Source: Candidatus Baldrarchaeum yapensis (GTDB taxonomy: Archaea > Asgardarchaeota > Baldrarchaeia > Baldrarchaeales > Baldrarchaeaceae). From it: DNA of 32,000 nt. The notes below the pieces were generated by a model. It was not told where the DNA came from, ran no database searches, and saw only the letters and a program-made list of their open reading frames with translations. The stretch's first letter is position 1; the number at the start of each line of letters is the position of its first letter. Positions 27,399-29,112 of this stretch are shown here, piece by piece. The stretch spans positions 1 to 32,000 of the forward strand of contig JAEOSH010000007.1 in the NCBI GenBank assembly GCA_016840465.1, given 5' to 3'. Both the position numbers and the translations under genes were made by a program.

Positions 27399-28292
27399 GT
27401 GCAGTTAGAGGAAGTGAAATCTCTAGCATTGCAGATCTCCGACTTGCGAAAGAGAAGATTTGAAATAATAGAAGAGTTAAAGAAATTGCGAGAAACGGCA
27501 AGGAAATACAGAGAGGAGAGGGATAAGATAAACGCAAAGGTCAAGGAGATATCAGAGAAAATAAGGGAGATAAGAAGCCGCAGGGGAGAGATAATAGAAA
27601 ATCTGAAATTCTTGAGGGAAGTAAGGAGAACTCTGCGCGAAAAAATAAGAAAAATAATAGGAGAAATCCGAGAAATCCGAGGATCTATGCCAAAGGTGCG
27701 CGGAAACCCTCAACGCCTCTTAGAACTGAGGGATCGCCTCGATTGGAGAATACAAACGGAGGCACTTTCGCTCGAAGAGGAGAAGAGATTGATAAAGGAG
27801 ATAATCCGTATAGAACAGGAGTTGCTCGTATACTACGAACGAGAGGAAAAAAGGGCTCAAATAGAGAATCTGAGGAAGCATCTCGATGAACTCAGAACCC
27901 AACTTGAGGAGCTACAGGGAAAGATAGATGAGGAGCAAAAGAAAGTTGATGAGTACAACCAGCAAATAGAGGAATTAATGAAGATGAGAGACGAATATAA
28001 ACAGCAGGCAGACGCCTATCACAAGAACTATCTAAATGCACGGGAAAGAATAAGGGCCCTCGAGCAAGAGTTGGAAAACATTTCACAAATGATAAAAGAT
28101 GGAACGAAAAAGCTAAAAGAGGCAAAGGCCATGGCGCTTGCACAGAAAATCCTAGAGAGGTGGAAAGAGGAGGAGGAAATGATACGCGAAAGGGTAAAAC
28201 GAATAGAGGAGAAGTTCAAGAAGACGAGAAGGTTAACCTTAGAAGAATTCATTCTTCTACAACAATATAGGGATCTACTCAAGAAGTCGTAA
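27399..28292 (+). CDS. Archaeal coiled-coil protein (COG1340-like)
   Basis: Heptad-rich E/K/R sequence with LDWRIQTEALSLEEE and C-terminal RLTLEEF signatures. Confidence 0.8.
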   Translation: MQLEEVKSLALQISDLRKRRFEIIEELKKLRETARKYREERDKINAKVKEISEKIREIRSRRGEIIENLKFLREVRRTLREKIRKIIGEIREIRGSMPKVRGNPQRLLELRDRLDWRIQTEALSLEEEKRLIKEIIRIEQELLVYYEREEKRAQIENLRKHLDELRTQLEELQGKIDEEQKKVDEYNQQIEELMKMRDEYKQQADAYHKNYLNARERIRALEQELENISQMIKDGTKKLKEAKAMALAQKILERWKEEEEMIRERVKRIEEKFKKTRRLTLEEFILLQQYRDLLKKS

Positions 28293-28383
28293 CGGCATAA
28301 AGTCCACGGTAATATGAAACAATATATTTCCGCGTTCTAAATTTTCTGACAACACCAAACCCATTAAAGCGGGGGGCCTCTCT

Positions 28384-28761
28384 CTGATACATGCAATACT
28401 AGTGCTCGAAGACTCAGGGATTCCGGTCGTTGTGAAAAGTTTGAGACCTCTTCCGACAAATGAGGTCCTTATCTCAGGATACCTCGTTGCCTTGGACTCC
28501 CTTGCAAGAACACTATCCATGGGGAGGTGTCAACTTTACAGGACCGAAAAATACAACCTTATCTTCTCTCACAACGGCAACATAATAGTAGTACTAATAA
28601 CGGACCCTCACGATGAGATTGAACGCGCAAGAGAACTCGCAGACAAAATTCTGGCAGAAATCTCAAATTTGAAGAACGAAGACCCCGAATATCTGGAACA
28701 GGTTCTGGAGAAGTACATACCATTGGGAATATCAGAACAATTTTCTATACGCGCGGATTAA
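28384..28761 (+). CDS. Longin-like domain protein (probable CTG start)
   Basis: LIHAILVLEDSGIPV...NEVLISGYLVALDSLARTL...YNLIF...IIVVLITD matches the longin beta-beta-alpha-beta-beta-beta-alpha order. G6 RBS at 28371-28376. The ORF track starts it at GTG 28402. Confidence 0.65.
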   Translation: MIHAILVLEDSGIPVVVKSLRPLPTNEVLISGYLVALDSLARTLSMGRCQLYRTEKYNLIFSHNGNIIVVLITDPHDEIERARELADKILAEISNLKNEDPEYLEQVLEKYIPLGISEQFSIRAD

Positions 28762-29112
28762 AAGTCTCAAAAGACCGCTCATATGCTTATAATTAAGCTT
28801 CACAGGTATGAATAACTGCTTTATTTGCCCGTTTTCCTTATAAAGCATCAAGAACCCATCCTTCGTTTTCTGGAATTCGACATCATAGAGCTTTCCGTGT
28901 ATTGAGAAGGATCTACCATCTGCAAGCATCCTCATCAACTCCATCAACTCATCTTTTGTCATCTTAAGCGAGGCCTTGCTCTTACCAAGATTCATCTCTA
29001 ACTCGTAAATCTTTGTCTTTTTTAGAAGTTTGCCCACCACGGTCTCCTTCAGAAGCATGTTGTCTACCTGTGCAATGATTCTCTCGCCGTTCCCTTTCAT
29101 TGCCACCACCAT
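28732..29112 (-). CDS. Hypothetical protein (126 aa)
   Basis: Strong RBS GAGGTGA at 29125-29119 and natural composition; no family recognised. Confidence 0.6.
   Translation of the reverse strand: MVVAMKGNGERIIAQVDNMLLKETVVGKLLKKTKIYELEMNLGKSKASLKMTKDELMELMRMLADGRSFSIHGKLYDVEFQKTKDGFLMLYKENGQIKQLFIPVKLNYKHMSGLLRLLIRAYRKLF

Follow-up and report, generated by a model that had tools for sequence, protein, structure and literature searches.

A stand-alone longin-domain gene with a probable near-cognate start codon in Candidatus Baldrarchaeum yapensis

The window analysed here, a stretch of 32,000 nucleotides (nt) from contig JAEOSH010000007.1 of the Asgard archaeon Candidatus Baldrarchaeum yapensis (C30:1-32000 in our numbering of this genome, which has 2.27 Mb and is 96% complete), contains at positions 28384-28761 a short gene whose product, a divergent longin protein that stands alone, belongs to an Asgard-wide family. 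The gene is probably functional and putatively expressed, it encodes one longin domain and it most likely starts at a near-cognate CTG codon; for this explanation as a whole, including the dimer and GTPase mechanism proposed below, we estimate a probability of about 0.7. Longins of this kind are already known to be abundant in Asgard archaea, and what is unusual in the present case is the probable near-cognate start and the clipped form in which the protein appears in databases.

Longin fold and membership in an Asgard-wide family

A structural model of the protein of 125 amino acids (aa) was built with AlphaFold2 on a 20-row alignment (A1) of the target sequence, 16 homologs from related genomes and three homologs from an exhaustive phmmer search. 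The model has a mean predicted local distance difference test score (pLDDT) of 87.1 and a predicted template-modelling score (pTM) of 0.81, and consists of strands at residues 2-9 and 14-19, a helix at residues 27-43, strands at residues 51-53, 58-64 and 67-73 and helices at residues 79-94 and 101-111, followed by residues 115-125, which are predicted to be disordered. This topology, β-β-α-β-β-β-α-α, is the order of elements in longins and lacks an N-terminal helix. An earlier sequence-only reading of this DNA had proposed a longin-like domain with just such an order of elements, and the model reproduced it exactly, with β1 regained from LIHAILVLEDSGIP and followed by helix, three strands and C-terminal helices. 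The helix motif described in that reading is likewise present (N-xx-LISGYLVALDSLA, that is N-E-V-L-I-S-G-Y-L-V-A-L-D-S-L-A), and the predicted structure, on which the claim had been made to depend, turned out to be that of a longin.

When the model was compared by VIA-align with 48,161 representative chains of the PDB, all 16 top matches were longin proteins, aligned over 101-115 residues with a root-mean-square deviation (rmsd) of 2.1-3.1 and Z scores of 11.6-12.8, and the longin alignments spanned the model from residue 1 to residues 111-118. Among the best matches were AP-3 sigma (Z 12.8), COPI delta (12.6), the first longin domain (LD1) of Fuzzy (12.4), the VAMP7 longin domain (12.4 and 12.1), AP-2 sigma (12.3), the longin domain of synaptobrevin-like 1 (11.8) and Mon1/Ccz1 (11.6-11.8 for the top rows), together with AP mu, COPI zeta and Bet5; profilin reached Z 9.1 in the same search. 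The leading Foldseek matches were AP-1 sigma3, Fuzzy, COPI and Mon1 with E-values of 1e-5 to 1e-4. In a comparison with PDB sequences, the A1 family profile detected TRAPPC1 (E 5.2e-5), the first longin domains of MON1 (E 4.3e-4 to 2.8e-3) and Bet5 (E 8e-4). As the structural scores of the sigma-adaptin, SNARE, sedlin/sybindin, Mon1/Fuzzy and SRX types lay within 1 Z unit of each other, the protein could not be assigned to a single longin subfamily among them.

Homologs were sought with phmmer and tblastn in 41 Asgard genomes, comprising the genome of the window and 40 related genomes that a genome search had returned, all 40 from the same phylum and only four from the same order. Weak but consistent family matches were found in 36 of the 41 genomes, including this one, the best single-sequence match having an E-value of 2.5e-10 and 33% identity. 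Four positions, G12, L29, G32 and A36, are invariant among the 20 sequences of A1 and all four are kept by the target. The alignment has the consensus MIHNxxIL...G.P...D..L.SGFLSA..SF.KE, and the N-terminus of the target fits, without gaps, the strand (M)-I-H-x-I-(Y/L)-(I/V)-L that characterizes this MIHNIY-type family; the A1 profile detects the locus with an E-value of 1.9e-32, the target being itself part of the profile. In a word-indexed search of 5.8 billion proteins, the shorter 119-aa database form of the target was the only match. When 1.84 billion representatives were searched exhaustively with phmmer, seven matches were obtained at E-values up to 1e-3, two of which are short stretches within giant proteins and probably spurious.

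A Pfam run on ten full-length homologs revealed that in two of them, L021 (386 aa) and L024 (303 aa), the longin domain is N-terminal and is joined to an Arf-family GTPase. L024 scores above the cut-off of the Pfam family Fuz_longin_1 (PF19036; 27.7 vs 26.1 bits), and four further homologs match the same family below the cut-off. The nearest shapes in the ESM Atlas all come from Asgard archaea and comprise fusions of longin with Arf, Roc or Ras domains (template-modelling score, TM, 0.83; rmsd 1.9 over 116 residues), longin-V4R and longin-TrmB fusions and stand-alone Fuz_longin_1 clusters. By language-model features the target resembles Asgard roadblock/Fuz_longin_1 clusters (0.92); these neighbours belong to Promethearchaeota (Asgard) clusters, in agreement with the expected placement of the contig. 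The NreA gene nearby shares 61-63% identity with genes in metagenome-assembled genomes of Odinarchaeota, Baldrarchaeota and an uncultured archaeon, and no ortholog of the longin gene was found beside this conserved neighbour in five other archaeal genomes. Contigs with this stretch of DNA occur in hydrothermal-vent, sediment and seawater metagenomes.

Nine family members, the target included, were detected in the own genome with the A1 profile, among them a 387-aa longin-Arf fusion on contig C54. The other members lie in frames of 227-720 codons, except for a truncated-looking 109-codon frame on C89; apart from the latter, the target, with 147 codons from stop to stop, is the only short-frame member. 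It is also the most divergent one, a single-sequence search reaching its paralogs only at an E-value of about 0.06. Its reciprocal best hit, in the same-order genome G004, is L013, a stand-alone longin of 126 aa that is 25% identical. In the literature, dozens of such domains are on record for each Lokiarchaeon genome, and both stand-alone longins and fusions with GTPases for Asgard archaea (PMC10933270). It is strongly supported that the target is a divergent stand-alone member of this Asgard-wide family, and its 125 residues hold a single domain, as the sequence-only reading had stated.

Other family members display further architectures. Four paralogs of 270-330 aa in the own genome (C89:24441-25430, C76:40044-40982, C61:42847-43845 and C12:55546-56358) carry, after the longin domain, C-terminal parts of about 150-200 aa that look by their sequences like winged-helix (TrmB-like) modules, and the gene on C76 lies beside an Arf-family gene (C76:41550-41951). 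A frame of 720 codons from stop to stop (C67:60650-62809) contains a C-terminal longin domain of the family and a segment resembling a winged helix-turn-helix, and the hydrophobic character of its first 470 or so codons, with the look of multiple membrane spans, suggests that its product could be a membrane-anchored longin. In G004 the 126-aa longin is located tail to tail with, and 12 nt from, a longin-GTPase fusion of 296 aa (L013:1489-2772). In sequence, the target is matched best by longin domains at the N-termini of proteins of about 600-700 aa that form a multi-copy family, exemplified by L011:1489-3291 (G010) and L012:1489-3315 (G020) and by open reading frames (ORFs) of about 640-710 aa in G007, G019, G023 and G028; the remainder of the L012 protein, the sole member scanned, had no Pfam match.

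Start codon of the longin gene

Direct reading shows an open frame that extends from 28318, just after a TGA at 28315-28317, to TAA at 28759-28761 and has no in-frame ATG ahead of the protein body. Three in-frame codons are candidate starts: CTG 28384, ATA 28387 and GTG 28402. The 125-aa reading from CTG (P0002) begins LIHAILVLEDSGIPVVVKS, and the 119-aa reading from GTG (P0003) is the automatic call and the form present in public protein collections. Both the lack of an ATG and the run of six G residues (G6) 7 nt before CTG 28384, which the sequence-only reading had put forward in favor of a CTG start, were found as described, and the homologs and the spacing statistics reported below favor the same codon.

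At the position of CTG 28384, 8 of the 16 aligned homologous genes start with ATG and one with GTG, while four more start one codon upstream. As the starts of the homologs align there, the N-terminus of the family lies at the CTG position. The distance from the G6 run is 7 nt (CCTCTCT) for CTG 28384, 10 nt for ATA 28387 and 25 nt for GTG 28402. The 3' end of the 16S rRNA was located on contig C59, and spacings of Shine-Dalgarno (SD) sequences were measured before 627 confident ATG starts of the same genome: GGAGG is most frequently separated from the start codon by 7 nt (26 cases; 3 at a spacer of 10 nt), and GGGG peaks at 6-8 nt. Runs of at least six G occur 339 times in the 4.54 Mb of both strands and 24 of them precede the canonical start of a long ORF at a spacer of 5-9 nt. 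The case studied here is the only one in the genome in which such a run stands 5-9 nt before a near-cognate codon opening at least 80 codons with no canonical start upstream; the chance of finding such a run 5-9 nt before a given codon is about 3.7e-4, and that of finding any SD-like pentamer about 0.03.

The CTG does not appear to be an error of one assembly, since the start region has an identical sequence in contigs from three further metagenome runs and no sequence variants were found among them at the locus. Contigs of runs X1 and X4, which may be source samples of this genome, span the locus without a difference, and a 151-nt contig of X7 is identical over 28307-28457. CTG is included among the start codons of translation table 11. 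Ribosome profiling in H. volcanii has indicated that about 30% of putative alternative initiation sites are near-cognate (PMC7261190). From these data it is strongly supported that the N-terminus of the protein lies no more than one codon from 28384, and CTG 28384 is predicted to be the most likely start.

If translation began instead at ATA 28387, the protein would have 124 aa and the same intact fold. ATA is also a near-cognate codon, and an Odin-like relative (L017) has ATA at the family start position, 6-7 nt after AGGAGG, in a paralogous longin gene of 309 aa. Yet the spacer of 10 nt to ATA 28387 is rare in this genome compared with that of 7 nt, and the initial methionine of the homologs aligns with the CTG and not with the ATA, which leaves this start with a low probability. 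The gene of the Odin-like relative (L017:1468-1560, in the single-contig 1.4-Mb Asgard genome G005) has no canonical start before codon 16; L015, from a sister genome, has an ATG one codon upstream, and in L014 an ATA stands 6 nt after GGGGGG, an ATG being present six codons upstream. Near-cognate initiation may be a recurrent feature of this gene family.

Still less likely is a start at GTG 28402. GTG is a canonical archaeal start codon and was chosen by gene callers, but there is no SD-like sequence 4-10 nt before it, and it would remove the residues that align with the conserved N-terminus M-I-H-N-I-Y of the family. The longin sheet has the strand order 2-1-5-4-3 (SCOP SNARE-like fold), in which β1 is an interior strand. 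It is most of this strand, modelled with a pLDDT of 93, that would be deleted by the GTG start, the database version being six residues short.

Similarly improbable is the view that the gene is a decaying paralog, a young pseudogene among nine redundant members, in which an ancestral ATG mutated to CTG and which is inefficiently expressed. In accordance with this view, homologs carry ATG at exactly the position of the CTG and the target is at most 33% identical to all of its relatives; against it, the frame is intact over 125 codons and yields a confident model, the four invariant residues of the family are retained and the SD-like site is still at the optimal distance. A functional gene with a CTG start is therefore preferred. 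The outcome is a corrected gene model for a small, well-predicted protein, and the case illustrates how a true start that is non-canonical can lead automatic gene calling to cut off the initial strand of small domains of this type.

Dimer model, small GTPases and neighboring genes

A model of two copies of the protein gave an interaction prediction score from aligned errors (ipSAE) of 0.66 (0.66, 0.65 and 0.66 in individual runs) as compared to 0.42 for the best control. Of 30 proteins whose solved structures are pairs, 20 reach the mark set for a dimer, as does 1 of 23 solved as single chains. Contacts were in 100% agreement between the runs, and the pLDDT of the partner was at least 76. The interface comprises residues 24-25, 29-30, 33, 36-37, 40-41 and 43-57, with helix α1 and strand β3 antiparallel to their twins. 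As this is the classical α1/β3 interface of longins and roadblock proteins, the high score may stem from resemblance to dimers with known structures; with this reservation the model supports homodimerisation of the longin protein.

Dimers of TRAPPC1/C4, of the LD1 domains of Mon1/Ccz1 and of MglB serve as platforms for small GTPases. By analogy the following mechanism can be proposed. Translation would initiate at CTG 28384, positioned by the G6 site 7 nt upstream and probably less efficiently than at an ATG. The protein would pair, through α1 and the edge strand β3, with a second copy of itself or with a paralogous longin domain, to form a continuous platform of ten strands as in TRAPPC1/C4, Mon1/Ccz1 and MglB, and this platform would bind one of the Arf/Rag-like small GTPases of the genome, acting as a guanine nucleotide exchange factor (GEF), a GTPase-activating protein or a scaffold subunit. 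Such dimer platforms of longin and roadblock domains are summarised in PMC10933270; for the present protein, activity as a GTPase platform is an extrapolation based on its fold and on the fused paralogs.

Twelve Arf-family matches were found in the own genome, the nearest of which, C30:40775-41155, is located 12 kb downstream of the target on the same contig. The GTPase domain encoded there shares 43% identity with the corresponding part of the fusion adjoining L013, which makes it a weak lead to a partner. The 16 nearest homologs were inspected for GTPase genes within about 1.5 kb. A longin-GTPase fusion is present at three of these loci: at L021 and L024 the fusion is the homolog, at L013 it is an adjacent gene. 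A separate Rab-like gene occurs at L023, and the remaining 12 homologs have no GTPase gene in this range. As GTPase neighbors are so sparse, gene neighborhood cannot name the partner. In MK-D1 the neighborhood is likewise uninformative on partners, its longins lacking operon linkage to GTPases (PMC10933270).

Several observations weigh against the proposed explanation. No GTPase gene adjoins the target, and some longin domains, such as those of SNAREs, of the sigma and mu subunits of adaptors and of SRX, do other jobs. A close ortholog was not found, the best match being 33% and the reciprocal best hit 25% identical, and the target alone gave no meaningful match in Pfam or NCBIfam. A literature search on CUG initiation in archaea returned nothing specific, the general statement on near-cognate sites in H. 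volcanii being the only relevant one.

A more speculative extension is that Asgard archaea use SD-guided near-cognate initiation (at CUG here, at AUA in the Odin-like relative) for some members of the expanded longin family, that this keeps the stand-alone longin at a low dose, and that the latter forms heterodimers with the longin domain of longin-GTPase fusions as a minimal regulator similar to Mon1-Ccz1 or TRAPP. Although this is unlikely, the start codon would, if it were true, be a regulatory feature rather than an oddity of annotation.

The sequence-only reading had noted the coiled-coil gene upstream and the lack of a GTPase gene nearby, and had suggested that the longin works with a different partner. 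This idea was not supported: the longin family includes fusions to Arf-like GTPases in relatives and in this genome, and although DUF7121 orthologs of the coiled-coil protein are present once per genome in 34 of the 41 genomes, in none of the 11 loci fetched did the next 1.5 kb or so downstream contain a longin-like sequence. The adjacency is thus lineage-specific and does not speak for a functional link between the neighbors. They share a strand and are 91 nt apart, but the longin gene has an AT-rich upstream region and an SD-like site of its own. A partnership with the coiled-coil protein in place of a GTPase is therefore very improbable; this candidate was rejected because of the 11 loci without a longin, and the coiled-coil gene is regarded as an unrelated neighbor.

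Two same-order DUF7121 orthologs are 45% identical. At the one that was read (L031), a PadR-like gene and Hsp20 come after the coiled-coil gene, and a TldD/PmbA-like gene neighbors the DUF7121 gene both in the window (divergently) and at L031 (on the same strand). Downstream of the longin gene, a convergent ORF of 126 aa (28732-29112, minus strand) overlaps its 3' end by 30 nt. This ORF has no match in Pfam or NCBIfam; its ESM Atlas model (pTM 0.67) resembles PurA-like proteins that bind single-stranded DNA or RNA (TM 0.67) and some immunity-protein folds, and a feature search points weakly (0.83) to hypothetical proteins of phages. An Rfam scan of the window detected no RNA family. The coordinates of the features are collected in Table 1.

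Table 1. Features of the longin locus and of the gene upstream (positions in the window)
Feature	Position	Strand	Basis or remark
Coiled-coil protein, 297 aa, Pfam DUF7121	27399-28292	+	32 bits, cut-off 29
AT-rich box AATATATTT, candidate archaeal TATA element	28321..28329	+	Sequence read; promoter role putative
Second AT-rich stretch TCTAAATTTT	28336-28345	+	Sequence read
GGGGGG, Shine-Dalgarno-like site	28371..28376	+	Pairs with the 16S 3' end ...GGATCACCTCCT like GGAGG, with one G-U wobble
CTG, most likely initiation codon, near-cognate	28384..28386	+	Homolog alignment, SD spacing, sequence identity across runs
Longin-domain coding sequence (P0002), 125 aa, stop included	28384..28761	+	AlphaFold2, VIA-align (residues 1-116), Foldseek, family profile
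Strand β1, residues 2-9	28387..28410	+	AlphaFold2; first 10 residues with pLDDT 93
GTG, alternative start, 119-aa automatic call	28402..28404	+	No SD-like sequence at usable distance
Helix α1 (L29, G32, A36) and edge strand β3, residues 24-57, predicted homodimer interface	28453..28554	+	Invariant columns, dimer model
C-terminal helices α2 (residues 79-94) and α3 (101-111)	28618..28716	+	AlphaFold2; distinguish longin from roadblock

Comparison with known longin and roadblock systems

The eukaryote-like toolkit of Asgard archaea includes platforms of longin and roadblock domains for small GTPases, and to our knowledge no such Asgard platform has yet been matched to its GTPase; the finding reported here leaves the current picture of Asgard biology unchanged. 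The target shares with the Asgard longins on record (PMC10933270) the fold, the N-terminus M-I-H-x-I-Y, the α1 motif D-x-x-L-x-S-G-F-L-S-A and the phylum, and its predicted dimer uses the same α1/β3 interface. Whereas those longins occur as stand-alone proteins or fused to GTPase, V4R/TRAPPC3-like or winged-helix domains, the target is stand-alone, is at most 33% identical to them and has CTG at the position of their ATG. With the solved Roadblock-Longin dimer of a Lokiarchaeota protein (PDB 8yqg), the model of the target reaches only Z 9.3.

Proteins of the Roadblock/LC7, MglB and LAMTOR2 type resemble the target in their five-stranded sheet with a central helix and in their mode of dimerisation. 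The roadblock/LC7 topology is α-β-β-α-β-β-β, with an N-terminal helix before the hairpin. That the target itself belongs to this type is scarcely credible: one Atlas feature cluster is automatically named Roadblock/LAMTOR2 and roadblock, MglB and LAMTOR structures attain Z 9-11.5 (with roadblock structures at 10-11.5), but their alignments cover only residues 1 to about 95-100 and leave the two C-terminal helices unaligned, those of longins reach residues 114-117 at higher Z, Foldseek gives TM of 0.57-0.70 for longins vs about 0.50 for MglB and roadblock, and the Pfam scan found no match of the target to Roadblock/LC7 (PF03259). In addition, an N-terminal helix has no coding room, because the frame closes 22 codons upstream, and this stretch lacks a start and any helix-like sequence. 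Since the superposition extends over the full domain and there is neither an N-terminal helix nor room for one, the model strongly supports a longin fold rather than a roadblock fold, and longins outscored roadblock proteins over the whole domain, as the claim of a longin fold had implied.

The longin domains of adaptors (AP sigma, the N-terminus of AP mu, COPI zeta and delta) gave the highest structural scores, with AP-3 sigma leading in Z and AP-1 sigma3 reaching a TM of 0.70, but their sequence signal has E-values of only about 0.3-0.9. The Sybindin-type proteins TRAPPC1/Bet5 and TRAPPC4/Trs23, which form the core heterodimer of the Rab GEF TRAPP, are single domains of similar size, and TRAPPC1 is the best PDB match of the family in sequence-profile comparison. 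The Z score is 12.0 with chain A of the yeast TRAPP subassembly 3cue (159 residues, Bet5-sized) and 10.2 with the TRAPPC1 chain of 7b6d. In contrast to TRAPP, no TRAPPC3/V4R gene lies beside the target, and identity is about 13-15%.

The LD1 domains of Mon1/Ccz1, Fuzzy/Inturned (CPLANE) and HPS1 resemble the family in that homologs of the target match PF19036, although Pfam detected no match of the target itself to PF19036, and in that the family profile detects LD1 of MON1 (E 4e-4); the corresponding structural scores of the target model are Z 12.4 for Fuzzy LD1 and Z 11-11.8 for Mon1/Ccz1. These tri-longin Rab GEFs differ from the target in having three longin domains in 400-550 aa, whereas the target has one domain in 125 aa.

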